Of a stretch of DNA of 64,000 nt, positions 1,033 through 61,555 are shown one piece after another (the first letter of the stretch is position 1; each line of letters starts with the position of its first letter). The stretch spans positions 23,306 through 87,305 of IMG/VR virus record IMGVR_UViG_3300044633_000899; one strand, given 5' to 3'. Source of the DNA: a virus. A model generated the notes under the pieces. It saw only the letters and a list, made by a program, of their open reading frames with translations, had not been told where the DNA came from and ran no database searches. The position numbers and the translations under genes are program-made.

Positions 1033-1059
1033 CCCACCGTAAATGGTGGGTTTTTTTTT
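1033..1059 (+). terminator. intrinsic terminator
   Basis: hairpin cccaccgtaaatggtggg followed by T9. Confidence 0.7.
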
Positions 1060-1105
1060 GATCATATCATTTGACATTAAAAAACGTTTCACCTATATTT
1101 CATCT

Positions 1106-1942
1106 ATGAATGTATTAAGTTTATTTGATGGATTATCTTGTGGTCAAATTGCCCTTAATAGAGTTGGAATTAAATACAACAAGTATTTTGCGTCAGAGAT
1201 TGACGAATACGCGATTAAAGTAACCCAACAGAATTATCCAGGAACAACCCAAATTGGTGATGTAACACAAGTTAAAGGATCTGAGTTACCACAAATTGAT
1301 CTTATCATTGGTGGATCACCTTGTCAAGGATTTTCATTTGCGGGAAAAGGTTTAAATTTTGACGATCCAAGAAGTGCTTTATTCTTTGAATTTGTTAGAT
1401 TAGTAAAAGAATGTAATCCGAAATACTTTTTACTTGAAAATGTTAAAATGAAAAAAGAACACGAAGATGTTATTACTGAACATATGGGGATTAAACCTAT
1501 TAAGATTAATAGTAAATTAGTATCAGCACAAAGTAGGGAAAGACTATATTGGACTAATATTCCGAACATAAAACAACCGGAAGATAAAGGTATTTTAGTT
1601 AAAGATATTTTAGATTATACCACCGAACATAAACTTTTAACTGAGAAGGGTATTAAATCACAAATCCATTATGCCAAAAATTACAAGTCAATAGGTAAAT
1701 CACCAACATTAACTAGTGAATTGGCGCACGGTTGGGGTAAGAACATCACACCCAAATGTTATATTGAAATAAAAGCAATTACTGGTGAGGATAGGTTATT
1801 CTCACCATTAGAATGTGAACGATTACAAACAGTTCCAGATAATTACACTTCAGTTGTATCAAATACACAAAGATATAAAATGTTGGGGAATGGATGGACA
1901 GTAGATGTAATCGCACATATATTTAAAAATATTGAAATATGA
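1106..1942 (+). CDS. DNA (cytosine-5)-methyltransferase, tandem paralog 1
   Basis: Motif I LSLFDGLSCGQ, motif IV GGSPCQGFSFAG (PCQ), ENV, C-terminal QRYKMLGNGWTVDVI; start moved to ATG 1106 (MNVLSLFDG) because the track start overlaps the terminator. Confidence 0.9.
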   Translation: MNVLSLFDGLSCGQIALNRVGIKYNKYFASEIDEYAIKVTQQNYPGTTQIGDVTQVKGSELPQIDLIIGGSPCQGFSFAGKGLNFDDPRSALFFEFVRLVKECNPKYFLLENVKMKKEHEDVITEHMGIKPIKINSKLVSAQSRERLYWTNIPNIKQPEDKGILVKDILDYTTEHKLLTEKGIKSQIHYAKNYKSIGKSPTLTSELAHGWGKNITPKCYIEIKAITGEDRLFSPLECERLQTVPDNYTSVVSNTQRYKMLGNGWTVDVIAHIFKNIEI

Positions 1943-2736
1943 ATGTATTAAGTTTATTTGACGGCATGTCAGTAGGACAAATTGCTCTTAATAGAGTTGG
2001 AATTAAGTATGACAAATATTTTGCATCAGAGATTGATAAATTTGCAATACAAGTAACACAATGTAATTATCCAGAAACAACCCAAATTGGGGATGTAACA
2101 CAAGTGAAAGGTTCCGATCTGCCACAAATTGATCTTATTATTGGTGGATCACCTTGTCAAGGATTTTCATTTGCTGGTAAACAATTGAATTTTGATGATC
2201 CAAGAAGTGCTTTATTCTTTGAGTTTGTTAGGTTAATTGAAGAATGTAAACCAAAGTATTTTCTACTTGAAAATGTTGTGATGAAAAAAGAATATGAAGA
2301 TATTATCACACAACATATGGGTGTAAAACCAATTCTCATAAATAGTAATCTTGTTTCAGCACAAAATAGAAAACGACTTTATTGGACCAACATTCCAAAC
2401 ATAGAACAACCAGAAGATTTAAATATAACTATGTCTGACATACTTTTAAGTGGTCAACATATACTTGTCTCAAAACAAAAAAAGGAACATAAACCTGGTG
2501 GTGATAAAACGGCAACATTACTTGCTAGAGACTATAAAGGATTTGGTAATCAACAAATGAGTGGTGCTATGGACAATGGTAATATTAGAATGTTTACACC
2601 TGTAGAATATGAAAGATTACAAACTGTTCCAGATAATTACACCTCTGTCGTCTCAAACACCCAAAGATATAAAATGCTTGGAAATGGATGGACTGTTGAT
2701 GTAATTGCACATATATTTAAAAATATAGAAATATGA
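1939..2736 (+). CDS. DNA (cytosine-5)-methyltransferase, tandem paralog 2 (different TRD)
   Basis: Same N- and C-terminal catalytic motifs as paralog 1; ATGA overlap with upstream gene; central ~70 aa unrelated. Confidence 0.9.
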   Translation: MNVLSLFDGMSVGQIALNRVGIKYDKYFASEIDKFAIQVTQCNYPETTQIGDVTQVKGSDLPQIDLIIGGSPCQGFSFAGKQLNFDDPRSALFFEFVRLIEECKPKYFLLENVVMKKEYEDIITQHMGVKPILINSNLVSAQNRKRLYWTNIPNIEQPEDLNITMSDILLSGQHILVSKQKKEHKPGGDKTATLLARDYKGFGNQQMSGAMDNGNIRMFTPVEYERLQTVPDNYTSVVSNTQRYKMLGNGWTVDVIAHIFKNIEI

Positions 2737-3641
2737 ATGTATTAAGTTTATTTGATGGGTTATCTTGCGGTCAAATCGCATTGAACCGTGCTGATATTAA
2801 ATATGAAAATTATTTTGCTTCCGAAATTGACAAACACGCAATCAAGGTAACGCAACACAATTACCCAAACACAATACAACTTGGAAGTGTTACAGAAATT
2901 AAAGGGTCTGATTTACCACAAATTGATCTTATCATTGGTGGATCACCGTGTCAAGGATTTTCATTCGCTGGTAAACAATTAAACTTTGATGATCCACGAA
3001 GTAAATTATTTTTTGAGTTTGTTAGACTAAAAAATGAGTTAAATCCAAAATACTTTTTACTTGAAAACGTTGTGATGAAACAAGAGTTCCAGGATGTAAT
3101 AACCGAGTATCTGGGTGTCAAACCAATTAAGATTAATAGTAAATTGGTATCAGCACAAACCAGAGAAAGATTATATTGGACTAATATACCAAATTTAAAA
3201 CAACCAGAGGATTGTGGAATAACATTAAATGATATCTTGGAGGATATTGGTATAAATGGTGAATCTTTTGATAAAACAAAATTAAATAAAGCGACAATAT
3301 TAGGTAGAAGATTAGATTCTCGTGGTAAACGGATGGATTATGACAAAACAATCCCAATTACACAATGTTTGGAGGTTAGAGCGACAAATAGAGATAAAAG
3401 TAATTGTTTAACAACGGTTGCAAAAGATAATGTTTTAACAACACTACCAATTGGTCGTCACGTTGACGCATTTAAAAAGAATTTACCATTCAGATATTTT
3501 ACAATAAAAGAACATTGTAGACTACAAACCGTACCAGATACTTATTTTGATGGTGTTGCGAGTGAAAATCAAATTAGAAAAATGTTAGGAAATGGGTGGA
3601 CAGTTGATGTTATTTCACATATTTTTAAAAATATTTTGTGA
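2733..3641 (+). CDS. DNA (cytosine-5)-methyltransferase, tandem paralog 3 (different TRD)
   Basis: MNVLSLFDGLSCGQ, GGSPCQGFSFAG, ENV, MLGNGWTVDVI; longer unrelated central region. Confidence 0.9.
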   Translation: MNVLSLFDGLSCGQIALNRADIKYENYFASEIDKHAIKVTQHNYPNTIQLGSVTEIKGSDLPQIDLIIGGSPCQGFSFAGKQLNFDDPRSKLFFEFVRLKNELNPKYFLLENVVMKQEFQDVITEYLGVKPIKINSKLVSAQTRERLYWTNIPNLKQPEDCGITLNDILEDIGINGESFDKTKLNKATILGRRLDSRGKRMDYDKTIPITQCLEVRATNRDKSNCLTTVAKDNVLTTLPIGRHVDAFKKNLPFRYFTIKEHCRLQTVPDTYFDGVASENQIRKMLGNGWTVDVISHIFKNIL

Positions 3642-7069: not shown

Positions 7070-7480
7070 ATGAAAAACACACTTATTCTTTTTTTTATAT
7101 TATTAACCAATATTTCTTTTGGTCAAATAATTGAATCTGACACAACAACACTATTAATACCAGTTAATGTTGGAAAATCTATTTTGGTTGACTTGAATGA
7201 TTTAGAGCGATTGAAAAAACAAGAAGTGACGTATAAAAATGAAATACAACAACTAGAAAACAAAGTATTTAAAAACGAAAAGATAATAACTAGTTTAGAG
7301 GATAAGGATAAAAAAAACAATGAGATAATTGAATTAAAGGATTCAAAGTATAAATTAGTTGACGAGGAAAACAAACAATTACGTGATGATATTAAAAAAA
7401 TCAAAACTAAGAATGTAATTATTGAAATTGTTGGTGGATCAATTATAGCCGCATTAACTTATATTATAACCTTTAAATGA
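7070..7480 (+). CDS. exported coiled-coil protein (signal peptide, C-terminal TM)
   Basis: N-terminus MKNTLILFFILLTNISFGQ, K/E coiled-coil, C-terminal IVGGSIIAALTYIITF. Confidence 0.5.
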   Translation: MKNTLILFFILLTNISFGQIIESDTTTLLIPVNVGKSILVDLNDLERLKKQEVTYKNEIQQLENKVFKNEKIITSLEDKDKKNNEIIELKDSKYKLVDEENKQLRDDIKKIKTKNVIIEIVGGSIIAALTYIITFK

Positions 7481-8574
7481 TGGAAGACACTATTAAACAA
7501 GATATAACACAAATGGTTAACAGTTTAACGGCAGGAAATAATGACGCCAGAGTTGCTGCAAACAAATCCTTGAATGAAGATGGTAATGAAAGAAATCCTG
7601 AAGACTATTTAGTTGAACCCAACGATATGGTTATTATTTTAAATCTAGTTAAAAATAAAAAACTATCTGCGAATAAAATAAAACAAAAAATTAGAGAGTA
7701 TCTTAAAGATCCTAACACACTAAAAAGTTTCTTAAAATCAATAATTGACAGTAGAGGTAAAAAAGAAACAAAAGAAATGACTGGTACATCTTCAGCTGGG
7801 GGATATTCAGAACCGTTATTCACGAAAATGGAAACAAAAGAAGCGACAGGTTCATCCTCATCTGGTTCATATGAAACACCAAAGATATGGGCTAAAAGTA
7901 CGAATAAAAAAGACTGGAGAGGTAAATCAAAACCACAAATACCTGGTGGTAAGTTTGTTCAGGTTAAGAAAAAATGTAAAAAGTTTCCATATTGTAATCA
8001 AGGTGATATTAACGCCCTTAATATTTTTGAAGATAAAATGTTGATAAATGCGGTAAATAAGGTTTCGCAAAAATTTGGTATAAATAAAGATATAATCAAA
8101 GAAATAATTGAAGTTGAGATTAGTAATACAACAACCGAAAATCAATACAAACTAATTAAAGAAAATATTTCTTTAAAAGAAAAATTAAGGAACCTAATCA
8201 AAAAGATTGGTTTTGAATCTGTAACAAAGATTGTTGGATCTTTGGATAAAACTTTTGAAATCTTTGATATTAAAGAACCGATGGATTTCTTAAACTTGTT
8301 TAACGATCTGGATGTTGTTCAGAGTGAAGACCTTGACTCTTGGACGTTATATCGTTATAAAAAAGGTCATAATTTTATTGTTTACGATAGAGAAAGTGAT
8401 GAGATTTATATTAATTATTATGAAATTTGGTCGGTTTTGGAAGACAAATTTGGTCTTAAATACTCTGAAATACAGGAACTTACAAAGATATGGTTGGATG
8501 AGGTCTACAATTTAAGGGGTGTCACATCATTGATAATTGGTGTTGATGACAGTTGTATGAGGTCTACAATTTAA
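7477..8574 (+). CDS. repeat-associated family protein A (about 220-aa unique N-terminal part + conserved ~130-aa module)
   Basis: C-terminal 140 aa about 75% identical to ORFs 26575-26997, 53750-54148 and 55672-56121; contains internal TENQYKLIKENISLKEKL; the last codons are encoded by the 36-nt repeat. Confidence 0.7.
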   Translation: MMEDTIKQDITQMVNSLTAGNNDARVAANKSLNEDGNERNPEDYLVEPNDMVIILNLVKNKKLSANKIKQKIREYLKDPNTLKSFLKSIIDSRGKKETKEMTGTSSAGGYSEPLFTKMETKEATGSSSSGSYETPKIWAKSTNKKDWRGKSKPQIPGGKFVQVKKKCKKFPYCNQGDINALNIFEDKMLINAVNKVSQKFGINKDIIKEIIEVEISNTTTENQYKLIKENISLKEKLRNLIKKIGFESVTKIVGSLDKTFEIFDIKEPMDFLNLFNDLDVVQSEDLDSWTLYRYKKGHNFIVYDRESDEIYINYYEIWSVLEDKFGLKYSEIQELTKIWLDEVYNLRGVTSLIIGVDDSCMRSTI

Positions 8575-8656
8575 GGGGAGTCACACCCTTTCATATAACT
8601 TATGCAATTGACTTAGAGTAGTTGGATGAGGTCTACAATTTAAGATAGTTCATACT
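8493..8656 (+). CRISPR. CRISPR-like mini-array A: 36-nt repeat x3 (third copy degenerate in its 3' half), spacers 23 and 33 nt
   Basis: GTTGGATGAGGTCTACAATTTAAGGGG(A/T)GTCACA(C/T)C at 8493-8528, 8552-8587 and 8621-8656; unique intervening sequence. Confidence 0.4.
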
Positions 8657-11386: not shown

Positions 11387-11782
11387 ATGGAAACGGTTCA
11401 AGAAAGTAATTATGGGGATTTAACAAATTTAGCGTTAATAACAGATGGTATACAAAAATTATTTCCAACAGGATTAGGTGTTTTGGTTTACGAATTAAAC
11501 GTGTATGATTTTTATAATATCAAAAAACAATTTCCAGAAATAGACGAAAACAAAAATCGTTTTAAAATTGATATTTCAGGTGTTGAAGTTGTTTTCATAC
11601 TTAAAGGTAGTCTTGAAAAAGAACTAACTAAACTAGAAGAACAAACTAAACTAGAAGAACAAACTAAACTAGAAGAACAAACTAAACTAGAAGAAGAAAC
11701 ATCAACGGAAGTTTTAGAACCAGTAATTAATGACTCATTTTTAAATAAACTTTTAAAATTATTCAGTAAAAAACGTAGTTGA
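11387..11782 (+). CDS. hypothetical protein with (EQTKLE)x4 repeat
   Basis: ORF encoding a perfect hexapeptide tandem repeat. Confidence 0.5.
   Translation: METVQESNYGDLTNLALITDGIQKLFPTGLGVLVYELNVYDFYNIKKQFPEIDENKNRFKIDISGVEVVFILKGSLEKELTKLEEQTKLEEQTKLEEQTKLEEETSTEVLEPVINDSFLNKLLKLFSKKRS
11624..11697. repeat. 18-bp direct tandem repeat x4 (aactaaactagaagaaca)
   Basis: Perfect tandem copies inside the CDS. Confidence 0.8.
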
Positions 11783-16112: not shown

Positions 16113-16695
16113 AATTTAATGGGTTATATGTTTTAATAATTTTTGTTTCTCTATTAAAATGTTTACCATTACCTTTCATTTGGTTATATAATGTTATATC
16201 ATATATTGGTAATTTATCTAATTTACCGAGAGTATTTAAACTGACTAAAATTTCATAATTAACCCCATTTATACTTTTTAATCTCAACACATCTTTATAA
16301 CCTAATTTCTGTAAAGAAATCATTTTCCATATATTATCTATATTTACTTTTACAATATTAATCCCCTCATCAATTTTAGGGTTAACAAAATTAGGATCAC
16401 TTGGGAATGTCTGTTCTCTAAAATTCCTTTCTGAAAAATGAGGATTAATTTTAATATTAAAATAGGCTTTTTTAACTTGATTTGTTTTTTTATCTGTATA
16501 TTGACCTAATAAAGGACTTATTTCTTTAGCTAAAATTTTTTGTGTAATATATGTTTGTTTGATTAACTTTAAAATTTCATCATCTATATGTTCGTAGTTA
16601 GTACCCTCATTCAATGGTTTACGACCAAGGTATTGAATACTCACAATATGATATACAATCTCCTCTCTCAAAATTTTTTTAATAATTTTTTTCAT
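16111..16695 (-). CDS. leader-peptide family protein (N-terminus MKKIIKKILREEI)
   Basis: Shares its N-terminal ~12 aa with ORFs 50020(-), 49065(-), 45564(-) and 20038(+). Confidence 0.6.
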   Translation of the reverse strand: MKKIIKKILREEIVYHIVSIQYLGRKPLNEGTNYEHIDDEILKLIKQTYITQKILAKEISPLLGQYTDKKTNQVKKAYFNIKINPHFSERNFREQTFPSDPNFVNPKIDEGINIVKVNIDNIWKMISLQKLGYKDVLRLKSINGVNYEILVSLNTLGKLDKLPIYDITLYNQMKGNGKHFNRETKIIKTYNPLN

Positions 16696-23663: not shown

Positions 23664-23694
23664 ATGGGTTGTTAATTAAATTTAACAACCCATT
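23664..23694. terminator. bidirectional terminator hairpin between convergent genes
   Basis: aatgggttgttaa-ttaaa-tttaacaacccatt, perfect 13-bp stem. Confidence 0.65.
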
Positions 23695-24514
23695 ATTTTA
23701 ATTTTAAAATTTGACCAGGTTTAAGTTCTGTTGATTTTAAATCGTTTAGTTTAATTATGGAATCAACGGTTACTGATTTGTCATATTTGGAAGCAATTCC
23801 AGATAATGTTTCACCTGGTTTTACAACATATAGTTTAAAGACACTCGGAGAAAGACCACCACCACCAATTTGTGGTTTAGGTTTTTGTGTCTTAGTTTTT
23901 TGTTGTTTAACTTTCGGTTCAACTGGTTTAGATAATTCTTCGGCATATTTTAAGAACGCCCTTTGGTTGTTTTTCATTCGTTCGGCAACAGTTCCTTTTT
24001 TTCTTGGGTCGTCAACATTTGAAAAGTCAATATTCCAACCTTCAAGATATTGTTTAGCACCCAAAGACCAATTATCATCATTTAAACTTTTAACCCATTT
24101 ATAACCACTTTTAACTTCACCACGATATGTCGCATTAACCAATGCTCTTTGAACATACACTGGGTATTTATCAAATTTTGGAAAAACTTTTTTAGCAATC
24201 TCTTCGTGTTTTTTAATATCATCAGTTAATAATTGTTCGGCTTCTCTATTTGATATAATCATACCTGGTTTTACTGATGGTCCGGTATGACCCCACCCAA
24301 TTGTTAACACACCACCATAAGGTGATTTTTTACGAATGAATGTTTTTTTATTGTTTGGTGGTAATTTCGGATCCTTATCATCAAACACGTAATGTTGGTT
24401 CTTACTATTAACAACGGTTGATTCATAACCTTTAATTAAATTCCTAAATTCTGTGTCACTAACAACACTTTCAATTAACATTTTATGTTGATTTTCAGTT
24501 ATTACGATTTTCAT
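23693..24514 (-). CDS. lysozyme (GH24-like) with C-terminal LysM domain and leader-like N-terminus
   Basis: GGVLTIGWGHTG...PVYVQRALVNATYRG (T4-lysozyme-like core); LysM LSGIASKYDKSVTVDSIIKLNDL..GQILKL; start set at MKIVITENQHKMLIE (ATG 24514). Confidence 0.6.
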   Translation of the reverse strand: MKIVITENQHKMLIESVVSDTEFRNLIKGYESTVVNSKNQHYVFDDKDPKLPPNNKKTFIRKKSPYGGVLTIGWGHTGPSVKPGMIISNREAEQLLTDDIKKHEEIAKKVFPKFDKYPVYVQRALVNATYRGEVKSGYKWVKSLNDDNWSLGAKQYLEGWNIDFSNVDDPRKKGTVAERMKNNQRAFLKYAEELSKPVEPKVKQQKTKTQKPKPQIGGGGLSPSVFKLYVVKPGETLSGIASKYDKSVTVDSIIKLNDLKSTELKPGQILKLK

Positions 24515-24549
24515 AATGATAAATAGTTGTGTAATTAAAAAAAAATATC

Positions 24550-24557
24550 TATATTTG
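24550..24557 (+). promoter_or_regulatory. -7 promoter element TAtaTTTG
   Basis: tatatttg 4 nt before ATG 24562. Confidence 0.4.
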
Positions 24558-24561
24558 CTAT

Positions 24562-24951
24562 ATGGAAAAAACAATATACATCGTAAGAGGATGTCCGGGA
24601 TCAGGGAAATCAACATTTGCTAAAACACTGGGTGGAATACACATTGAGGCGGATCAATACTTTGTTGATGCTGATGGTAATTACAATTTTGATGGTAGTA
24701 AAATTAAAAATGCTCACGCTTGGTGTTTAGATAGGGTTAAAACGAATATGGCGACAGGTAGAGATAAAATAGTTGTCTCAAATACCTTTACACAAGAATG
24801 GGAATTCCAACCATACCTTGAACTTGCAAAAGAATATGGTTACAAAACTTTCACTATTATAGTTGAAAATTATCACGGAGGTATAAATCAACACAATGTT
24901 CCAGAAGACAAAATAGAACAAATGAAAAACAGATTTAGTATAAATTTATGA
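24562..24951 (+). CDS. P-loop polynucleotide-kinase-like protein (kinase domain only)
   Basis: IYIVRGCPGSGKSTFA Walker A at the extreme N-terminus, as in T4 Pnk; 129 aa. Confidence 0.5.
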   Translation: MEKTIYIVRGCPGSGKSTFAKTLGGIHIEADQYFVDADGNYNFDGSKIKNAHAWCLDRVKTNMATGRDKIVVSNTFTQEWEFQPYLELAKEYGYKTFTIIVENYHGGINQHNVPEDKIEQMKNRFSINL

Positions 24952-25916: not shown

Positions 25917-26570
25917 ATGAACTTTAAAAAAATATTAACAACAGGAAAAGTATTCATAACATCGGATACACATTACGGACACAAAAATATTGTACGAGGT
26001 GTAACAAACTGGAGAACCCAGGATGGTGAAATACCTATTGATTCAGTTAGGGATTTTGGAACAATTGATGAAATGAATGAAAGATTGGTTTATGGTATTA
26101 ACAATATGGTTGGTCAAGACGACACACTAATAATGTTGGGTGATGTTTCATTTGGGGGATTTGATAATATTGGAATTTTTCTTGATAGATTGGTATGTCA
26201 AAACATTCATCTTATATTAGGAAATCACGATATGCACATCCAGAACAATCGTGGAAACATACAGAGTAGATTTTTAAGTGTTAATCACTATTTGGAAGTG
26301 AATATTGAAGGAAAAAATTTTGTGTTATGTCATTATCCATTACAAAGTTGGCATGGACTAAATAAAGGCGTTATCCAACTTCACGGGCATGTACACCTTA
26401 GTCCAGACAAAAAATTTGGTAAAGGTAAAAAAATGGACGTTGGTATGGACGGTAATAACTTAAACCCATATAGTATTGGTGAAATCATTAAGATTATGGA
26501 TAAAAGACCAATATTTTCAGATATGGATAATGATCATCATCTGGATGATTTAGTTGGTATTATTGGTTAA
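25917..26570 (+). CDS. calcineurin-like metallophosphoesterase
   Basis: SDTHYGH, GDVSFGG, LGNHD, CHYPL, GHVH motif series. Confidence 0.8.
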   Translation: MNFKKILTTGKVFITSDTHYGHKNIVRGVTNWRTQDGEIPIDSVRDFGTIDEMNERLVYGINNMVGQDDTLIMLGDVSFGGFDNIGIFLDRLVCQNIHLILGNHDMHIQNNRGNIQSRFLSVNHYLEVNIEGKNFVLCHYPLQSWHGLNKGVIQLHGHVHLSPDKKFGKGKKMDVGMDGNNLNPYSIGEIIKIMDKRPIFSDMDNDHHLDDLVGIIG

Positions 26571-26574
26571 TAAT

Positions 26575-26997
26575 ATGGAAGACAAAATAAAAGAAAAATT
26601 AAAGGATTTAATCAAAAATGTTGGATTTAAATCAACGATAAGAGTTGTCGGATCCTTGGATAAAACATTTGAGATCTTTGATATTAAAGAACCAATGGAT
26701 TTCTTAAATTTATTTAATGATTTGGAATCGGTTCAGAGTGAAGAACGTGAAGATTGGACGTTATATCGTTATAAAAAAGGACATAATTTTATAATTTACA
26801 ATAGAAAAAATGATTATGTTCATATCAATTATGATGAAATTTGGTCAGTTTTAGAAGACAATTTTGGACTTAACTACTCTGAAACACAAGAACTTACACA
26901 GAGATGGTTGGATGAGGTCTACAATTTAAGGGGAGTCACACCATATATTCAACTTTTTGAAAATCAGCAATATAGTTGGATGAGGTCTACAATTTAA
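26575..26997 (+). CDS. repeat-associated family protein B
   Basis: About 75% identical to the modules in 7477, 53750 and 55672; ends ...WLDEVYNLRGVTP + spacer-encoded YIQLFENQQYS + WMRSTI (second repeat copy read in a different frame). Confidence 0.7.
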   Translation: MEDKIKEKLKDLIKNVGFKSTIRVVGSLDKTFEIFDIKEPMDFLNLFNDLESVQSEEREDWTLYRYKKGHNFIIYNRKNDYVHINYDEIWSVLEDNFGLNYSETQELTQRWLDEVYNLRGVTPYIQLFENQQYSWMRSTI

Positions 26998-27073
26998 GGG
27001 GAGTCATACCAACACCCCCTTCCAACTTTTAGTAAACATTGGATGATATCAACAATTTAATATATTTATTTTT
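26907..27073 (+). CRISPR. CRISPR-like mini-array B: 36-nt repeat x2 plus a degenerate third copy, spacers 32 and 27 nt
   Basis: Repeats at 26907-26942 and 26975-27010 (1 mismatch), degenerate copy about 27038-27073 (attggatgatatcaacaatttaa). Confidence 0.4.
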
Positions 27074-27526
27074 ATGAAGATCATAATAACCGAAGAACAA
27101 TATAACCTACTACAAGATATTGATGATGGGTTAATAACCTACTCAAGTATATTTAAACCTAAGATTAAGATTTTAGTTATATTTAAAAATAATGAAAATT
27201 ACGAAAATCTTATAACGATATTCAATGAGTATGGTTATGGTTTTTATGTACCAAACCAAGAATTAATAATTATTAATGGTGAAATATTTTTAAATTCTAA
27301 CGATTTAACAATGGACGATTTAAGGTTTATTGAGGCTCACGAAATTAGTCACTTACTTTTAAATCACGATGGACCAAGATCCGAGAAAGACGAAATGGAT
27401 GCCGACATAGGTGCGTACATATTATTAACAAGACATAATATTTCAACAGAACGATTAGTGGATGAATTTGAATTTAGACATAATGTTAAATTTGATGAAA
27501 AACTAACTAAAAATTTTGATATTTAA
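27074..27526 (+). CDS. ImmA/IrrE-like HExxH metallopeptidase with leader-like N-terminus (MKIIITEEQYNLL)
   Basis: FIEAHEISHLLLNHDG closely matches the ImmA/IrrE (COG2856) zinc-peptidase motif. Confidence 0.55.
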   Translation: MKIIITEEQYNLLQDIDDGLITYSSIFKPKIKILVIFKNNENYENLITIFNEYGYGFYVPNQELIIINGEIFLNSNDLTMDDLRFIEAHEISHLLLNHDGPRSEKDEMDADIGAYILLTRHNISTERLVDEFEFRHNVKFDEKLTKNFDI

Positions 27527-27550: not shown

Positions 27551-28105
27551 ATGAAGAAAGCGATTTTATTTTTGGATAACGACGGTGTAATATGCCTTTC
27601 CAACAATTGGGGTGGTAGATTTAAGAAAAAAGGATTTGATTCTAATCCCCAAACACCAATGGATATTAGAATGGATGATTTTGATACTAAAGCGGTTAAA
27701 GTTTTAAATGAGATTATTAAGGAAACTGGTTGTGATATTGTGATGTCATCTGACTGGAAGAGACACGGTACTTTGGAACAAATACAAGAAATGTATGAAA
27801 TCCGAGGAATTAAAAAACCAATTGATTTAACACCATTCTTTACTGACTTAGCGGTTAAACAATTATTACCAAAAGATTTTATTTTACCGTATTTTGATCG
27901 TATAGAAATTGAACGACATATTGAAATCCTACATTGGTTAAAAGAACACCCAGAAGTAACACACTGGGTAGCAGTAGATGATTTAGATATGGGAATACAA
28001 GATGGTTGGGGTTTAACAAATTTTGTTCACTGTCAACGACCACATAATGAGGGAATAAAACAATCAGGAATTAAGGATAAGATTATAAAATTTTTAAATA
28101 GTTAA
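27551..28105 (+). CDS. HAD-superfamily hydrolase-like protein
   Basis: Motif I FLDNDGVI near the N-terminus. Confidence 0.45.
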   Translation: MKKAILFLDNDGVICLSNNWGGRFKKKGFDSNPQTPMDIRMDDFDTKAVKVLNEIIKETGCDIVMSSDWKRHGTLEQIQEMYEIRGIKKPIDLTPFFTDLAVKQLLPKDFILPYFDRIEIERHIEILHWLKEHPEVTHWVAVDDLDMGIQDGWGLTNFVHCQRPHNEGIKQSGIKDKIIKFLNS

Positions 28106-45563: not shown

Positions 45564-45944
45564 TTATTTGTTTTTGATGATTATATCAGATATTAGGTCG
45601 TAATACATATCCGCGACAACATCTTCATCCATATCTTCATCTTTAACTTCGTTAAAACCAATTGCGTATAATAGGTTAATAATATCAAAATAATAGAATG
45701 GTAAATCAACAACACTAGGTAGCCCTTGAAGCCATTCTATTATTGCTTTTTTCTCACCCATTCTGTTAATCGCCCAACCGTACTCACTTTGGAATATATT
45801 ATATAACGAACCAAATTTATCACTTGAATTTTCGTATTCATCATAACCAGTTAAATCAATACCTTCTTCAACAAAGGACTCCAATTCTTCAAAAGGTGTT
45901 TTTTCAATATATTCCAATAATATTCTTTTTATAATTTTTTTCAT
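45564..45944 (-). CDS. leader-peptide family protein (MKKIIKRILLEYIE)
   Basis: N-terminal motif shared with 16111(-) and 50020(-); acidic. Confidence 0.5.
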   Translation of the reverse strand: MKKIIKRILLEYIEKTPFEELESFVEEGIDLTGYDEYENSSDKFGSLYNIFQSEYGWAINRMGEKKAIIEWLQGLPSVVDLPFYYFDIINLLYAIGFNEVKDEDMDEDVVADMYYDLISDIIIKNK

Positions 45945-49064: not shown

Positions 49065-50051
49065 CTACCAAGTAACATTACAACCAGACATAGGTAAACC
49101 ACTTTTATTACCAAAATCAATAACAAAACTACTAATAGTGTTCTCAATATAGTCTCTAAATTCAAAAGATTCTTCGAAATCATCAAATGGTGATTGTGTA
49201 CTACTAAATCTAAGAGGTTCATCGTTTTCATCATAAACAACACCTTCGGTCACTGTTGCGTCAACGTAACAATATATTTTACCATCTTCATCATCAAAAC
49301 GGATAGAATCTATAGTAAACCTAAGTTTACCTTCAAACCAATCATCAGAAAAATCATTTTCAGTGAAAACTTGATCCTCAAGTAATTCTTTAATAATTTG
49401 TGCGCGACTATTGATATCACTATATTCGGCATAAAACTCCATAATATTTTTTAGTTTTGATTTTAAACCCATTCTTTTAATATCATTATAATTTAATTTA
49501 ACTTCTAAACCACTTTCTTTTTGTTTATCCCAAAGATTAAATAAGAACACTTTAAAAGGGTCATTATTTGTCTCAACAATTCTATTTTTTTTACGTAAAG
49601 TTTTTGACTCGTAATATTGATTAAATTTGTTTAACATTTTATAATATTGTTGTAACAAATCGTACCTATCAAATTTATTTGATAACCAGTTTTCACCATT
49701 TCTATATTCGTTATTTTGGTCATCAAAAGTTATAAAGTTATTTGGGTTGTTACCATATAAACGATAAATAGCAAAAGCATTACTACCAAGTTTTTCTTTT
49801 ATTTCTTTATTTCTAATTACGATATAACCTAAAACGCCCAATTTTATATGTTTATTAAAATCTTTATCACAATCTCGTTTTGTTGTACACCATTTTGTGT
49901 CGGATCCATATTTTCTTGAAGCACTATGTGTTAACGGAATTGTTAATATAAAGTCATCGTCACGATACAACTCAACGGATTCGTCGGTTGAAACTTTATG
50001 TACTTCTTTTAAAATTTTTTTAATAATCGTCTTCATCATCAAATTCTTCAA
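49065..50051 (-). CDS. leader-peptide + WCT-motif domain protein
   Basis: MKTIIKKILKE N-terminus; SRKYGSDTKWCTTKRD block shared with 24948 and 13635. Confidence 0.55.
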   Translation of the reverse strand: MKNLMMKTIIKKILKEVHKVSTDESVELYRDDDFILTIPLTHSASRKYGSDTKWCTTKRDCDKDFNKHIKLGVLGYIVIRNKEIKEKLGSNAFAIYRLYGNNPNNFITFDDQNNEYRNGENWLSNKFDRYDLLQQYYKMLNKFNQYYESKTLRKKNRIVETNNDPFKVFLFNLWDKQKESGLEVKLNYNDIKRMGLKSKLKNIMEFYAEYSDINSRAQIIKELLEDQVFTENDFSDDWFEGKLRFTIDSIRFDDEDGKIYCYVDATVTEGVVYDENDEPLRFSSTQSPFDDFEESFEFRDYIENTISSFVIDFGNKSGLPMSGCNVTW

Positions 50052-50655
50052 TATCGTAAGTGTAATTTTGTTGAAACTCTATAATCCATATTGTGTCAAA
50101 ATATTTATTTAATTGTTCGTCAGTTAAATCAACAATTGGTATATTTTCACCATCAATATACGCCATAGTACGACCAACAGATTTAAACCATTCAATTTTT
50201 TGTTCTCTATTGTAATTCGGTATCTTTTTTTGAATTTCAGATTTACATAAACCACCTTTAAAATTATAAGGTGCAACACGATCAACATCAGTTAATGAAA
50301 GTTTTGAACGACTATTAAAATCATCAAGATATGTCTCTTCAATGTAATCACCTATCATTTCAGTAACTAAACCCTTTCTAATTTTAAAATACTTACTAAC
50401 CTCATTGATTATTTTATCATCTATTAATATTTCAACATCTTTATCGGTACCCATAAATAGACCAATTTCTTTACCATTAGAACAAAATTCAACACGATAG
50501 TCACCGTATGTTTGATCTTCAGTATAATGGTCTAAAGTATATCTCTTAAACACTAAGTTAATATACTTCATAATTATTGAATATAACTCTGGTGTTACTT
50601 TATTATAACGTTTTTTTATTTCTTCCCTTAAAATTTTTTTAATAATTGATCGCAT
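50020..50655 (-). CDS. leader-peptide family protein (MRSIIKKILREEIKK)
   Basis: N-terminal motif; overlaps the downstream gene by 32 nt. Confidence 0.55.
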   Translation of the reverse strand: MRSIIKKILREEIKKRYNKVTPELYSIIMKYINLVFKRYTLDHYTEDQTYGDYRVEFCSNGKEIGLFMGTDKDVEILIDDKIINEVSKYFKIRKGLVTEMIGDYIEETYLDDFNSRSKLSLTDVDRVAPYNFKGGLCKSEIQKKIPNYNREQKIEWFKSVGRTMAYIDGENIPIVDLTDEQLNKYFDTIWIIEFQQNYTYDIEEFDDEDDY

Positions 50656-52413: not shown

Positions 52414-53257
52414 TGATCAAATAATTAGTGAAGTTAGAAACGAGTCAATGTTAAATAAAAAACAAGATCGTATAATAACGATTGATGACACAATAATTAA
52501 AAAATACATCAATATTAACGTATATGGTTACGATAATGATTATAATAATTTAAATATTGATTATATCTCCAAACATAGAGGTTTTCCAAATTTAATTAAT
52601 AGGTTATTATATGAGGTTTATGTTGATTATTTAAATGATAATGAAGATAAAACAATGACTGGTATTGTAGGTATTTTTACACCAAATGAATATACCAATT
52701 GGTCAATACTTAATTATTTTGGTGGACATAAATTTGTTAAAGACATTTTAATCCAGGAGTTTAAAAACGATAAAACAACACAAAAAACGCCAAAAGAATT
52801 TTACCGTTGGTTAATAACCAATAAGAGTATGTTGTTTGGTGAAAAATCACAGATTTTAAAAAAGTTGGTTAGAACAAACCTAAATACTTTTAATAAAGGA
52901 ACAAAAACGGAATTATTTTTAACAAAAGTACTTAAAGAATCTGGATTTGATGTTAAGTACTTTCCGCCAGGTTCAACATATGATAGAAAATATGGTATTG
53001 ATTTAATTATAAATAACACCTCATACCAAATTAAAGAATTAGTTGGGATTGAGGAATTAAATGATGGGTATTATTTAAAAACACCATTACCTAAAGAATA
53101 TAAAAACCTTAATGTTAAACGAATAATGTTAGTTGATATCAATAATGGTGAGTTTGTATCGTTTCCGAATAAAGATTATGTTGTTAGTCAGAAAGATAAT
53201 GCTTTTATTGTTGATAAATCTACTAAACTAAAAGTTGGAAATATATTTAAACTATGA
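52406..53257 (+). CDS. hypothetical protein (283 aa)
   Basis: ORF. Confidence 0.5.
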   Translation: MNNDQIISEVRNESMLNKKQDRIITIDDTIIKKYININVYGYDNDYNNLNIDYISKHRGFPNLINRLLYEVYVDYLNDNEDKTMTGIVGIFTPNEYTNWSILNYFGGHKFVKDILIQEFKNDKTTQKTPKEFYRWLITNKSMLFGEKSQILKKLVRTNLNTFNKGTKTELFLTKVLKESGFDVKYFPPGSTYDRKYGIDLIINNTSYQIKELVGIEELNDGYYLKTPLPKEYKNLNVKRIMLVDINNGEFVSFPNKDYVVSQKDNAFIVDKSTKLKVGNIFKL

Positions 53258-53760
53258 AAATAATTATAACCGAAAGCCAATATAAATTCTTAACTGAAAA
53301 TTTTGATTCTGTTTTGGATATATACTCAAAGAAAAATAAAGGTGAAACATTAAAACCTTCCGAATTGGATGTGTTAAAAGTTTTTAATGATTATGTAAAA
53401 AAAGGTGGCACACCAGAAGAATTTGTTTTTAATCAAGACGATGTTTATGGATTTGATGAGAGAGAAGGTATGTTATTTAATTATAATCTAAAAGGTCGGC
53501 CATTACAATTTGAGTTCACTGAAGAAACTGAAACCGAAAATGATATTGACTATTTTGGTGAAATAACATTTGATGGTGATGAATACCTCGGCGTTATTGT
53601 AACGGATAAAAATGGTTATTTAATTGATTATGATTTTTACTCAACGTTAACAAAAGGTGATGTTAGATTACAGGAATTATTAATTGTTGATAATAGTGAT
53701 GCAGAATTTAGAAATTTTTTACAAGAAATGGTTATTAACGTTTTAATAAATGAAAAATAA
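53254..53760 (+). CDS. leader-peptide family protein (MKIIITESQYKFL)
   Basis: N-terminal motif shared with 27074 and 55672. Confidence 0.5.
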   Translation: MKIIITESQYKFLTENFDSVLDIYSKKNKGETLKPSELDVLKVFNDYVKKGGTPEEFVFNQDDVYGFDEREGMLFNYNLKGRPLQFEFTEETETENDIDYFGEITFDGDEYLGVIVTDKNGYLIDYDFYSTLTKGDVRLQELLIVDNSDAEFRNFLQEMVINVLINEK

Positions 53761-54148
53761 TTTAAAAGAAAAATTAAAGGACTTAATCAAAAAGGTTGGT
53801 TTTGAATCAACGATAAGAGTTGTCGGATCCTTGGATAAAACTTTTGAAATTTTTGACATTAAAAAGCCAATGGATTTCTTAAATTTATTTAATGACCTAG
53901 AATCAGTTCAGAGTGAAGAACGTCAAGAGTGGACATTGTATAGATATAAAAAGGGACATAATTTAATGGTTTACAATAGAGAAAATGATTATGTTTATAT
54001 CAATTATGATGAAATTTGGTCAGTTTTGGGAGATAAATTCGGTCTTAACTACTCTGAAATACAGGATCTTACAAAGAGATGGTTGGATGAGGTCTACAAT
54101 TTAAGGGGAGTCACACCTAACGAAGTATACTATTACGTTTGGTGCTAG
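53750..54148 (+). CDS. repeat-associated family protein C
   Basis: MKNNLKEKLKDLIKKVGFESTIRVVGSLDKTFEIFD...WLDEVYNLRGVTP then spacer-encoded NEVYYYVWC stop. Confidence 0.7.
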   Translation: MKNNLKEKLKDLIKKVGFESTIRVVGSLDKTFEIFDIKKPMDFLNLFNDLESVQSEERQEWTLYRYKKGHNLMVYNRENDYVYINYDEIWSVLGDKFGLNYSEIQDLTKRWLDEVYNLRGVTPNEVYYYVWC

Positions 54149-54183
54149 TTGGATGAGGTCTACAATTTAAGGGGAGTCACACC
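54082..54183 (+). CRISPR. CRISPR-like mini-array C: two perfect 36-nt repeats, one 30-nt spacer
   Basis: GTTGGATGAGGTCTACAATTTAAGGGGAGTCACACC at 54082-54117 and 54148-54183. Confidence 0.4.
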
Positions 54184-55668: not shown

Positions 55669-55671
55669 GTG

Positions 55672-56121
55672 ATGAAAATAATAATAACTGAAAATCAATA
55701 TAAATTGATTAAAGAAAATATTTCTTTAAAAGAAAAATTATTGGGTTTAATCAAAAAAGTTGGATTTAAATCTGTTGTAAAAATTGTCGGATCTTTGGAT
55801 AAAACATTTGAAATTTTTGATATCAAAAAACCAATGGATTTCTTAAACTTGTATAATGATTTGGAATCAGTTCAGAGTGAGGAACAACCTGATTGGACTT
55901 TATTTCGTTATGAAAAACACAAAAATTTAATGATTTACCATAGAAAAAATGACTACGTTTACATCAATTATGATGAAATTTGGTCAGTTTTGGAAGATAA
56001 ATTTGGTCTTAACTACTCTGAAATACAAAAACTTACAGAGAGGTGGTTGGATGAGGTATACAATTTAAGGGGAGTCACACCAACGGAAGGAAATTGGAAC
56101 CAAAAAGATTGGGTTGGATGA
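55672..56121 (+). CDS. repeat-associated family protein D with leader MKIIITENQYKLIKENISLKEKL
   Basis: Module about 75% identical to A-C; stop codon lies inside the second repeat copy. Confidence 0.7.
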   Translation: MKIIITENQYKLIKENISLKEKLLGLIKKVGFKSVVKIVGSLDKTFEIFDIKKPMDFLNLYNDLESVQSEEQPDWTLFRYEKHKNLMIYHRKNDYVYINYDEIWSVLEDKFGLNYSEIQKLTERWLDEVYNLRGVTPTEGNWNQKDWVG

Positions 56122-56148
56122 GGTCTACAATTAAAATAGCCACACAAA
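56046..56148 (+). CRISPR. CRISPR-like mini-array D: 36-nt repeat + 31-nt spacer + 3'-degenerate repeat
   Basis: Repeat at 56046-56081 (1 mismatch), second copy 56113-56148 diverges after about nt 20. Confidence 0.4.
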
Positions 56149-60543: not shown

Positions 60544-61155
60544 ATGAAAACTGAATTGACATACGAAGAAAGAATCGCATGGTTTGTTGAAAACTATTAT
60601 GAGAGTGGTATGGAATACCAAAGTCTTTTAGTTACAATGAAGGAGGAGGATTTAGATAATTTTAAATGGTACGATGATTTCATATCAATACCAAAACACA
60701 AAGTAGAATCAAAATTTGGAACATATATGGAAACAGAAAGTACAACAAAATTAACCAGTGATAAGATCACAAGGTTTGTTGAAAGGTTGAAAAAAATTGG
60801 AATTGATGTGAAACTAATAGGAAACTTTCCTTGGGTTTATATTGATGAGATCTGTGGGATCAGAGTTACTGAAAGTTTTGCTGCGAACCACGGATTTACT
60901 TTGATATTCCTTCCTGGTAGAAACGATAGTCCTGTGTCTGAATTTACAGACATTGAAGAGATTTTCAAACTTATACGAAAGTACGTTAAAGAAGCAAAAT
61001 TTAGACAAATTGAAAAGTTAAAGGCTCAGATTGAAGTATTAGAAAGTATTTGTGATAATACTATGGAACAAGACGATGCAACTAAATACTTTGTGTTGTG
61101 TAAGTTATCTGATTTAAAAATAAAACTAAAAGAAATAAAAAATGAAAATCAATAA
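60544..61155 (+). CDS. hypothetical protein (203 aa)
   Basis: ORF. Confidence 0.5.
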   Translation: MKTELTYEERIAWFVENYYESGMEYQSLLVTMKEEDLDNFKWYDDFISIPKHKVESKFGTYMETESTTKLTSDKITRFVERLKKIGIDVKLIGNFPWVYIDEICGIRVTESFAANHGFTLIFLPGRNDSPVSEFTDIEEIFKLIRKYVKEAKFRQIEKLKAQIEVLESICDNTMEQDDATKYFVLCKLSDLKIKLKEIKNENQ

Positions 61156-61555
61156 ATTATTTTTAGATGACGTAAGAATCCCAAAAGATGCGATAGGATT
61201 AATTCCGGATAAACATAATCAGTTTTACTTCTCTAACGATTGGGAGATAGTAACAAACTATGATGATTTCGTTCAACACATTGAACTTAACGGAGTTCCT
61301 AACTTTGTATCATTTGATCACGACCTGGGTGATACCGCAATGGATGAGTATTTTAGAAATGTTGCAACCAATGGAACTTTGGATTATGAAAACATAGAAG
61401 AAAAAACTGGTCTTGACTGTGCAAAATTTCTTGTGGAATATTGTGTAGATAAAAACCAACCATTACCAGAGTATTTGGTTCATAGTGCAAACCCAGTTGG
61501 AAAAAGAAATATTGAAGGATTTTTAGAAAACGCAAAAAAACATTTAAGTATATAA
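61142..61555 (+). CDS. hypothetical protein (137 aa)
   Basis: ORF. Confidence 0.5.
   Translation: MKINKLFLDDVRIPKDAIGLIPDKHNQFYFSNDWEIVTNYDDFVQHIELNGVPNFVSFDHDLGDTAMDEYFRNVATNGTLDYENIEEKTGLDCAKFLVEYCVDKNQPLPEYLVHSANPVGKRNIEGFLENAKKHLSI

Follow-up and report, generated by a model that had tools for sequence, protein, structure and literature searches.

Al-Shayeb et al. (2020) are said to have described huge phages with cas-less or compact CRISPR arrays, and Nivala et al. (2018) reportedly observed that Cas1-Cas2 can integrate spacers off target, at sites in the genome that resemble repeats ('neo-CRISPR'). Such huge-phage arrays are summarised in PMC11656645, and off-target spacer integration is discussed in PMC6698737. 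Virus-borne CRISPR mini-arrays carry repeats identical to those of the host's CRISPR, and most of their spacers match related viruses (PMC11656645). In Flavobacterium columnare, a type VI-B array of 36-bp repeats and 30-bp spacers that lacks cas1 and cas2 is filled in trans by a type II-C module (PMC8092290), and type II Cas1-Cas2 requires only ~10 bp of leader and the repeat borders (PMC6895254). Phages are also known to carry repeat-mimic RNAs that inhibit Cas complexes (Racrs; PMC10651486).

The window, meaning the whole 64,000-nucleotide stretch analysed here, holds a 36-bp repeat at four loci. With up to 3 mismatches allowed, the 36-mer occurs 7 times, all on the + strand, against a chance expectation of 0, and degenerate copies at 8621 and 56113 bring the repeat family (D3) to 9 copies, or to 10 when a truncated copy at 27038-27060, found by eye and by an array-walking script, is counted. 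The sequence-only reading had described 9 perfectly conserved copies at four loci; the number and the loci held, whereas the conservation proved imperfect, with only three exact copies (26907, 54082, 54148), four with 1-2 mismatches and two truncated. The repeat unit measures exactly 36 bp and is sharply bounded; the flanking bases on both sides are variable. The unique segments of 23-33 nt reported between copies were confirmed: locus 1 has segments of 23 and 33 nt, locus 2 of 32 and 27 nt, and loci 3 and 4 have one each, of 30 and 31 nt respectively. The degeneration of the copy farthest from the gene was borne out at loci 1, 2 and 4, where about the first 23 nt and no more are kept, and not at locus 3, where that copy is intact. 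All downstream copies in the window are out of frame or lie past a stop codon.

8493..8528, + strand: locus 1 repeat 1, coding copy for (W)LDEVYNLRGVTS, differing from the consensus at 2 positions
8529..8551, + strand: locus 1 spacer 1, 23 nt, an unusually low length
8552..8587, + strand: locus 1 repeat 2, 1 mismatch, out of frame, source of the stop codon
8588..8620, + strand: locus 1 spacer 2, 33 nt
8621..8656, + strand: locus 1 terminal repeat, nt 1-23 intact (23/23), decayed in nt 24-36
26907..26942, + strand: locus 2 repeat 1, exact match, coding
26943..26974, + strand: locus 2 spacer 1, 32 nt
26975..27010, + strand: locus 2 repeat 2, 1 mismatch
27011..27037, + strand: locus 2 spacer 2, 27 nt
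27038..27060, + strand: locus 2 terminal repeat, truncated, ATTGGATGATATCAACAATTTAA, 19/23, with the start of the following gene at 27074
54082..54117, + strand: locus 3 repeat 1, exact match, coding
54118..54147, + strand: locus 3 spacer 1, 30 nt, with 2 different spacers at orthologous loci of other strains
54148..54183, + strand: locus 3 repeat 2, exact match, the intact terminal repeat of this locus
56046..56081, + strand: locus 4 repeat 1, coding, 1 mismatch
56082..56112, + strand: locus 4 spacer 1, 31 nt
56113..56148, + strand: locus 4 terminal repeat, 21-22/23 over the first 23 nt in the identical copies L037/L038, remainder decayed

At each of the four loci the first repeat copy is coding and makes up the 3' end, WLDEVYNLRGVT[P/S], of one of a set of paralogous genes. 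It corresponds to the last 13 codons (WLDEVYNLRGVTP) of a four-member gene family and forms the last 36 bp of the gene, from the third base of a Trp codon through ...RGVTP. Family-gene coding sequence thereby stands in place of a leader: repeat 1 and everything upstream of it are coding, and a non-coding A/T-rich leader beside the first repeat is absent. We know of no precedent for a coding 'leader'. The sequence-only reading did not mention that the first copy is coding. The four genes are listed below.

7477..8574, + strand: family gene 1, 365-aa ORF, with the family domain in the C-terminal ~125 aa and a D1 copy at 8144-8443; the ORF as called runs through spacer 1 into repeat 2
26554..26997, + strand: family gene 2, ORF as listed, true start probably the ATG at ~26575
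53750..54148, + strand: family gene 3, 132 aa, identical to database protein P0001
55669..56121, + strand: family gene 4, 150 aa

The family protein had no match in Pfam, PHROGs or PDB sequences, and neither the locus nor the protein showed a relative among 50,697 genomes of isolated phages by blastn and tblastn; a 'Tako8' match was spurious, with no passing stretch. A first AlphaFold model (pLDDT 60) was too poor for use. The second, built from a more diverse alignment, was confident (pLDDT 92.8) and gave weak fold matches only; its N-terminal helices show a weak likeness to a homeodomain-type DNA-binding bundle. Conservation of the RGVT(P/T) tail is 90% or higher, yet its last three residues (121-123) have a pLDDT below 50 within this confident model, which suggests that the constraint acts on the DNA or RNA and not on the protein. 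A synonymous-conservation test on the coding repeat was biased, the loci having been picked by repeat match, and was set aside. The usual ORF tail in the family is the out-of-frame reading WMRSTI*, and in P0006, P0131 and P0167 the downstream copies are read in frame and the peptide is repeated.

Another 84 public contigs of large T4-like phages (35 viral, 48 metagenome and 1 MAG) carry the same repeat, and every array on them starts within a member of the gene family. The pooled data comprise 90 distinct arrays of up to 7 repeats, 57 of them with 2-3 repeats by consensus count, and 124 unique spacers, 88% of which are 29-31 nt long (mode 30). Distant family members (~50% identity) have their own repeat variant, likewise duplicated downstream. 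The linkage of gene and array occurs in hundreds of uncultured large aquatic phages and is conserved in hundreds of genes of divergent lineages. The terminal repeat lacks nt 24-36 in 63 of 82 arrays, while its 5' 23 nt match at 19 or more positions in 76 of 82; the minimum seen in every member is a repeat, a spacer and a 23-nt partial repeat. One genome carries many such loci, with four within 64 kb here and three in tandem in L098. Neighbouring genes differ at every array locus, and no candidate integrase or effector recurs beside the arrays. A tyrosine recombinase was seen at one related locus only (L094, 3.4 kb from the array), and a TnpB gene beside one family gene (L078) is a single case that was treated as an IS insertion.

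Comparison of strains revealed how the arrays change. Orthologous loci with flanks 95-100% identical carry unrelated spacer sets, and in three pairs of strains the difference is a single spacer next to the gene, either added or replaced. L005 shares its distal spacers with L003/L035, and L009 with L010/L027, the proximal spacer being different in both cases, and L074 equals L083 plus one gene-proximal spacer. The repeat added in L074 is an exact copy of its own coding repeat, private variants included. Internal repeats are ~35/36 identical to the first repeat of their own array, and where first repeats depart from the consensus, the variant is also present in the second repeat at 56 of 84 positions. 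Judged by these sequence comparisons, the spacer differences at the gene-proximal end and the copying of the coding repeat indicate that spacer gain or turnover is a polar acquisition of the CRISPR type. The CRISPR-like architecture proposed earlier, with a constant 36-bp repeat, ~30-bp unique spacers of near-constant length and a decayed distal repeat, was thus upheld and is joined by hypervariable spacer content with polar gain.

The 124 spacers are mutually unrelated, inherited copies excepted. Their GC content is 35.0% versus 29.8% for the phage DNA, and their base composition is strand-symmetric whereas the phage coding strand is A-rich; this departure from phage DNA suggests a foreign origin. 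Spacer lengths showed no enrichment for multiples of 3, indicating no coding constraint. No protospacer was found for the 124 spacers in 725 kb of related phage DNA (no significant match) or in INPHARED, and exact scans with 4 spacers against IMG/VR and 1 against metagenomes found none either, so the spacer comparison that the sequence-only reading had asked for returned no target in any of these sets. The sole matches were those of one palindromic, terminator-like spacer to generic hairpins of phages of Firmicutes. For most natural spacers no match is known.

The arrays share with viral mini-arrays (PMC11656645; archaeal SPV1/SPV2) their shortness, their 1-2 spacers, the lack of cas genes nearby and a Cas machinery presumed to act in trans. 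They differ from them in that a host array with the repeat was not found and 0 of 124 spacers match the 725 kb of related phage DNA, in that the first repeat lies within the coding region of genes from one conserved family, and in their dispersal over many loci per genome. Like the huge-phage arrays, they lie in large metagenomic phage genomes, sometimes without adaptation or interference genes, but those arrays are free-standing, non-coding and usually one per genome, and no fusion to a gene family has been reported for them. As in neo-CRISPR, a spacer is inserted outside a canonical cas-linked array and the adjacent sequence is duplicated; those events, however, are rare accidents, whereas the present arrangement is conserved in hundreds of genes of divergent phages. 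New here is a variant of the virus-borne mini-array that is fused to a gene family, and its nature could be more autonomous.

The resemblance to Bacteroidetes class 2 repeats that had been suggested is borne out statistically. The repeat is identical at 21-25 of 36 positions to two published Flavobacterium VI-B repeats (PMC5395568), with z of 3.5-7.5. VI-B direct repeats have GUUG...CAAC ends and an internal hairpin with a U-rich loop, and this hairpin is lacking here. As in the Flavobacterium VI-B arrays (PMC8092290), 36-bp repeats alternate with ~30-bp spacers in an array that lacks cas1/cas2, spacers are gained in a polar manner at the leader end, and transcription would run from leader to array in the GTTGG... 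orientation. The 5' GTTG is shared, and many phage variants have GTTG...CACAAC ends, whereas the repeat of the window ends in CACACC and the 3' CAAC is absent there. Further differences are the missing internal CCCUU/AAGGG hairpin, a cas13b that was not found, the gene in the position of the leader, and the truncated terminal repeat, which would leave the last spacer without a full 36-nt direct repeat.

The earlier statement that the window contains no cas gene was corroborated, as no Cas family was found among its ~90 ORFs by Pfam or among the PADLOC matches listed; no cas13b was found beside the arrays in the window, and the largest ORF encodes a 646-aa LRR protein. The ~150 kb of Pfam-annotated flanks of related genomes yielded no cas gene, and for 114 large ORFs of related loci, searched with PADLOC and NCBIfam, methyltransferases and sugar enzymes dominate among the matches listed. 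Comparison with host CRISPR loci, also proposed earlier, found no locus with the repeat in 185,579 species representatives (one genome per species), where a degenerate repeat pattern matched only a phage fragment, and in a metagenome scan all 48 of 48 loci were gene-linked phage arrays, with no host array. A permissive Rfam search with a 6-repeat array found no CRISPR-DR or other family. The repeat RNA is predicted to be unstructured (MFE -2.1 kcal/mol, weaker than 198 of 200 shuffles). For a tracrRNA-like anti-repeat in the transcribed orientation, the best duplex outside the arrays of the window (-22.2 kcal/mol) was at the shuffled level; one site in the reverse orientation at ~24290 (-27.9 versus ~-22 in only 3 shuffles) is probably due to chance. 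A tracrRNA might also be encoded by the host. Promoter-like sites were rarer than in shuffles. With no cas gene found, the loading of a host effector, as proposed by the sequence-only reading, is an inference.

On balance we favour, with modest confidence, genuine gene-anchored arrays of the CRISPR type, with an integrase supplied in trans and a putative effector. The comparisons show that pieces of foreign DNA of ~30 bp enter right after the first repeat, with duplication of that repeat, so that the conserved protein end is kept and only the short tail is altered. The array grows from the gene-proximal side, and its oldest, distal repeat decays in its last 13 nt. The putative integrase would be of the Cas1-Cas2 type, most likely from the adaptation module of a Bacteroidota host. 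Since a terminator scan found no terminator-like site between family gene and array, the array may be co-transcribed as the 3' UTR of the gene. Candidate crRNA-like units, each a spacer with 23 nt or more from the start of the following repeat, could then occupy or redirect an effector, either one of the host or an undiscovered one of the phage, and may act as guides attacking competitors or as mere decoys.

It is also conceivable, if rather unlikely, that the recording is autonomous to the phage, with family protein, coding repeat and array served by machinery elsewhere in the ~260-310 kb phage genome, of which about a quarter is in view for any one phage. This machinery might consist of true Cas homologues, or of an integrase and an effector unrelated to them, and the family protein might bind the repeat or leader; the homeodomain similarity is weak, however, and the family has no invariant acidic or histidine residues suggestive of catalysis. 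In its favour, the repeat was seen only in linkage with the gene and in no case as a host array, every member retains repeat, spacer and 23-nt partial repeat, and the linkage holds across fresh- and marine-water lineages with ~50% protein identity and a repeat that appears highly similar. In a biased sample the repeat also appears more conserved than the protein across phage lineages, which fits a phage-inherited partner better than a patchy, fast-evolving host CRISPR-Cas. Against this, no integrase or effector candidate recurs by the arrays, whose neighbours differ per locus, and we know of no T4-like phage that has an adaptation module of its own. We regard as doubtful a self-contained adaptive module of T4-like jumbo phages that, with a putative integrase and effector of the phage, captures ~30-bp foreign DNA without host CRISPR-Cas, be it a CRISPR analogue or a hitherto unseen phage-borne CRISPR type with a coding leader.

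Quite improbable in our view is a decoy in which the end of the gene imitates a repeat, or the junction of leader and repeat. Its many copies in each replicating genome would soak up Cas1-Cas2 integration events or effector proteins of the host, with the arrays as a by-product and the spacers functionless. Many loci per genome and mostly short arrays would suit a decoy, as would spacers that match nothing, relatives included, unlike those of classical viral mini-arrays, and whose composition, unlike phage DNA, is consistent with capture of any DNA in the infected cell. The Racrs (PMC10651486) offer a precedent, being repeat-like phage sequences without cas genes, and the present repeat could likewise bind host Cas proteins; yet Racrs are solitary mimics of a known host repeat, whereas these arrays hold true spacers with turnover and the mimicked host repeat was not found. 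Moreover, a solitary repeat would suffice as a sponge, but spacer and repeat parts are kept by every member, and the 5' 23 nt of the terminal repeat are maintained.

Highly improbable, finally, are C-terminal cassette recombination sites, coding tandem repeats or gene-conversion scars between paralogs, for although the coding first copy and the multi-copy family provide homology for recombination and three members repeat the peptide in frame, spacer lengths peak at 29-31 nt without preference for multiples of 3, downstream copies in the window are out of frame or after a stop and ORF tails usually read WMRSTI*, the spacers are unrelated, the added repeat reproduces the first one exactly, and recombination between paralogs is unable to make new 30-bp segments of uniform length. 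Both alternatives raised by the sequence-only reading fall with this: cassette exchange is rejected because the lengths of the spacers do not follow multiples of 3 and the distal copies mostly stand out of frame or behind stop codons, and homing-element scars because the spacers all differ. Other candidates were discarded as well, namely a diversity-generating retroelement (repeats too short, no adenine-specific variation, no reverse transcriptase among the Pfam families listed for the window), a shufflon or invertase (inverted repeats needed), replication slippage (spacers would be duplicated) and an integron cassette array (repeat not palindromic, whereas attC sites are imperfect palindromes, and a tyrosine recombinase seen only at L094).

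Standard CRISPR finders miss arrays of this kind because they have only 2-3 repeats and overlap a gene. If host Cas1-Cas2 fills them, as in the reading we favour, the adaptation machinery of the host is routinely exploited by lytic T4-like phages, or leaves its marks on them, at many loci. The spacers would be a natural record of DNA in infected cells, from which phage-host and phage-phage encounters in lakes and oceans could be read. If the machinery is instead phage-borne, it would be a new adaptive system and would show the birth of an array from, or its fusion to, coding sequence. On either reading, the 36 bp and their coding 'leader' offer a concrete substrate for defining the minimal sequence needs of a Cas1-Cas2 integrase.

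In a conserved family of phage genes, the 3' end of the gene also serves as the first repeat of a CRISPR-type array, and these arrays gain spacers at their gene-proximal end. The sequence-only reading had called the four loci of the window CRISPR-like mini-arrays; absent from it was the fact that every locus starts within a gene. The four ORFs are paralogs with 77-87% identity across 300 nt in the alignment (repeat family D1), and the first repeat codes for the final residues of their proteins, (W)LDEVYNLRGVT(P/S). The 36-mer GTTGGATGAGGTCTACAATTTAAGGGGAGTCACACC gave seven window matches at ≤3 mismatches, all on the plus strand, with none expected in shuffled sequence, and two degenerate copies added by the repeat finder (family D3) bring the number to the nine copies at four loci claimed earlier, besides a tenth, truncated one. 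Only three copies are exact, so the description of the repeat as perfectly conserved was overstated; the segments between copies are indeed unique, at 23, 33, 32, 27, 30 and 31 nt against the claimed 23-33 nt.

Repeat-spacer arrays (repeat family D3) and family ORFs in the window
8493-8656, plus strand: array, locus 1; family ORF 7477-8574
26907-27010, plus strand: array, locus 2; family ORF 26554-26997
27038-27060: truncated tenth repeat copy, locus 2
54082-54183, plus strand: array, locus 3; family ORF 53750-54148
56046-56148, plus strand: array, locus 4; family ORF 55669-56121

The later window copies are out of frame or lie past a stop codon. With a start-to-start spacing of 67 nt (3n+1) the next repeat translates as WMRSTI-stop, with 59, 65 or 68 nt (3n+2) the reading frame enters GTT GGA TGA, and the locus 3 spacer has TAG as its own last three bases. 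None of the downstream copies is thus a protein-coding repeat, and that explanation was rejected for the window. In a distant lineage, the 760-aa family protein P0167 comprises five domain copies and repeat-spacer units in one long ORF, an indication that some arrays remain in frame and might be translated.

The exact 24-nt core of the repeat was found on 35 IMG/VR contigs and its 3'-half pattern on 48 lake and marine metagenome contigs. At all new loci the upstream translation terminates in ...W[LV]x[ED]xYxLRG[VI]T[TP], and the metagenome pattern scan revealed no free-standing array among them. The family comprises 472 close homologs and 502 clusters at 50% identity. In distant members the C-terminal peptide recurs about 10 residues further on in the translation, and their DNA carries lineage-specific repeat variants duplicated downstream of the gene (for example GGTGGATGAATCATACAATTTAAAGGGAGTCACAAC at locus L042, with 30-nt spacers). 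On contig L098 (9038-10542), three tandem family genes are each followed by a mini-array, and one of these arrays has its truncated terminal repeat directly against the start codon of the gene that follows. Neither the repeat nor the peptide motif occurred in the literature searched.

Counted as copies matching the global consensus, 90 distinct arrays contained one (17 arrays), two (36), three (21), four (9), five (3), six (3) or seven (1) repeats, and nearly all of the single-repeat arrays also held a spacer and a truncated copy when re-walked with their own first repeat. Spacers of 29 (24), 30 (44) and 31 nt (41) made up 88% of the 124 unique ones, with no excess of multiples of three. Their GC content was 35.0%, compared with 29.8% in the surrounding phage DNA, and that of the first 54 spacers exceeded random window 30-mers by ~4.5 standard deviations; strand composition was symmetric (A 0.318, T 0.332), and the phage coding strand is A-rich (0.39 vs 0.32). 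Internal repeats matched the first repeat of the array they belong to at ~35 of 36 positions. Nt 1-23 persisted in the terminal copy, with 19 or more of the 23 matching in 76 of 82 arrays, and over nt 24-36 at most 6 of 13 positions matched in 63 of 82. One spacer among loci L046-L093, TAAACCCGTCGAATTCGACGGGTTTAAAATT, is a perfect terminator-like palindrome; its weak matches in Staphylococcus and Lactobacillus phages are generic to such a palindrome and were rejected as protospacers.

Grouping the arrays by downstream flank gave orthologous loci with 95-100% identical flanks and unrelated spacers, including five other spacer sets at the position of window locus 2 and three at that of locus 3. 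Polarity was seen in three pairs of arrays. L005 and L003/L035 have 100% identical flanks and three distal spacers in common with a different gene-proximal spacer, and L009 and L010/L027 likewise have the distal spacer in common and a different proximal one. In the third pair, L083 reads R1-Sa-R2-Sb-Rt and L074 reads R1-Snew-R2-Sa-R3-Sb-Rt (R1, coding repeat; S, spacer; Rt, terminal repeat); the new R2 of L074 is a copy of its R1, private variants included, and the older repeat lacks those variants. This is exactly what an insertion beside the first repeat should leave if that repeat is duplicated, and it fits the mechanism described for type II Cas1-Cas2 (PMC6895254). Recombination between paralogs cannot make new 30-mers and was rejected, as was replication slippage, which would copy spacers. 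We know of no other mechanism for precise fixed-length repeat duplication with unrelated inserts of uniform length.

The family protein had no sequence match in Pfam, PHROG or PDB. An AlphaFold model built from a diverse alignment was confident (pLDDT 92.8, pTM 0.86) and predicted four N-terminal helices, a four-stranded sheet and two C-terminal helices, with the repeat coding for the end of the last helix and the RGVT(P/T) tail. Residues 121-123 had pLDDT <50 in a tail that is nonetheless conserved at 90% or more, which we read as a constraint acting on the nucleic acid. No catalytic-looking residue is invariant across the family, which is unlikely to be the integrase. The N-terminal motif MKIIITE(N/S/E)QY is common to otherwise unrelated neighbouring ORFs (window 27074-27120, 53254-53300 and 55669-55720, and internally at ~8140 in ORF 7477-8574); many distant family members begin with it or with M..L.E.IRRILKEE, and it may act as a shared signal for targeting or assembly, or as a recombination module.

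The sequence-only reading had likened the repeat to class 2 repeats of Bacteroidetes such as type VI-B. Compared with published Flavobacterium repeats (PMC5395568 Table 4), it was 21-25/36 identical to two VI-B repeats (z 3.5-7.5), both orientations scoring alike because VI-B repeats are near-palindromic. It also aligned with the 46-nt F. psychrophilum II-C repeat (z about 4-5), and pairwise comparison gave no resemblance to the F. columnare II-C repeat or to a V-A repeat. Many phage repeat variants terminate in CACAAC. A F. columnare VI-B array lacking cas1/2 has 36-bp repeats, is transcribed from its leader and acquires spacers through a II-C module despite differing leaders and repeats (PMC8092290), and its spacers are 30 nt long (PMC5395568 Table 4). 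The phage arrays parallel it in 36/30 geometry, leader-then-GTTGG... orientation and lack of own adaptation genes, but they differ in having no hairpin, no cas13b found and a truncated terminal copy. As RNA, the repeat had almost no structure in either orientation (-2.1 and -2.5 kcal/mol, not stronger than shuffled sequence), and it matched no Rfam family. The terminal copy, being truncated, is unable to supply a full 36-nt direct repeat; the retention of just the first ~23 nt after the last spacer would better suit a type-II-like 3' handle, but no anti-repeat was found in the window. The segment ACAATTGGGTGGGGTCATACC (minus strand, ~24270-24300, inside ORF 23693-24616) resembles repeat nt 16-36, probably by chance, and its duplex with the reverse-complement repeat reached -27.9 kcal/mol, where three shuffled sequences gave about -22.

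Pfam gave no Cas family among ~90 window ORFs, in agreement with the earlier reading, and precomputed Pfam annotation listed none in ~150 kb of sequence around family genes from five related genomes. The matches listed for 114 further large ORFs included one TnpB beside a family gene, an IS200/IS605-type RNA-guided nuclease (L078 3289-4500, minus strand; NCBIfam E 2.6e-130) 67 nt upstream of the gene and array with a GIY-YIG-like ORF alongside, at this single locus. Separately, L094, part of a 310-kb genome, encodes a tyrosine recombinase whose best match is integron-integrase-like (L094 13910-14707), 3.4 kb downstream of the window locus 3 ortholog and absent from the window. Comparison with host CRISPR loci and phage sequences, as proposed earlier, gave no bacterial array when a degenerate repeat pattern was run over 185,579 species representatives, and no spacer match in related phage DNA, isolate phages, IMG/VR (four spacers, exact) or metagenome contigs (one spacer, exact).

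The window has 29% GC and ~114 ORFs, the majority on one strand. Related contigs on which the repeat recurs carry genes for a T4-type major capsid protein (Gp23), baseplate J protein, ribonucleotide reductase and a Gp20 portal with an intein (split gene at L027 1989-5081), and family-bearing contigs reach 259-310 kb. The lineage is one of T4-like jumbo phages known from metagenomes only, with no relative of locus or protein among 50,697 isolate genomes. The capsid protein shares ~43% identity with its counterparts in Flavobacterium phage 'immuto' and a Microcystis phage, and one 1.8-kb array-bearing fragment sits in a Flavobacterium MAG bin, weak hints at Flavobacteriia as host. The window also carries three tandem paralogous C-5 cytosine DNA methyltransferase genes (1043-3641; PF00145; 80-85% identity across 300 nt), a D12 adenine methyltransferase gene, an 18-nt coding tandem repeat, AAGAACAAACTAAACTAG, of ~5 copies (11619-11708, ORF 11387-11782), and an A/T-rich motif, TTTTTTTAATAATTTTTTTCAT (plus-strand reading), conserved at minus-strand gene starts (16664-16695, 45913-45944, 50005-50036, 50624-50655), probably a common promoter and ribosome-binding region. 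RNA-repair-type genes (27551-28105, 61142-61555, 62655-63770) encode a 'Swiss Army Knife' RNA repair HAD domain, a cyclic-phosphate-processing receiver domain and an RNA ligase, and could work against host RNases, among them RNA-targeting defence systems with collateral RNase activity.

Unlike known virus-borne mini-arrays, these have a coding first repeat and 'leader', many loci per genome, no known matching host repeat and no spacer that matches the related phage DNA searched. A Cas1-Cas2-type integrase would act on them in trans, most simply supplied by a II-C-type module of a Bacteroidota host. The partner machinery may instead be phage-borne, in keeping with the apparently strong conservation of the repeat across phage lineages in a sample that is not unbiased. 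The array would be co-transcribed with the family gene, since the terminator scan gave no terminator-like site between them, and its RNAs would engage an effector, as guides or merely by occupying Cas proteins.
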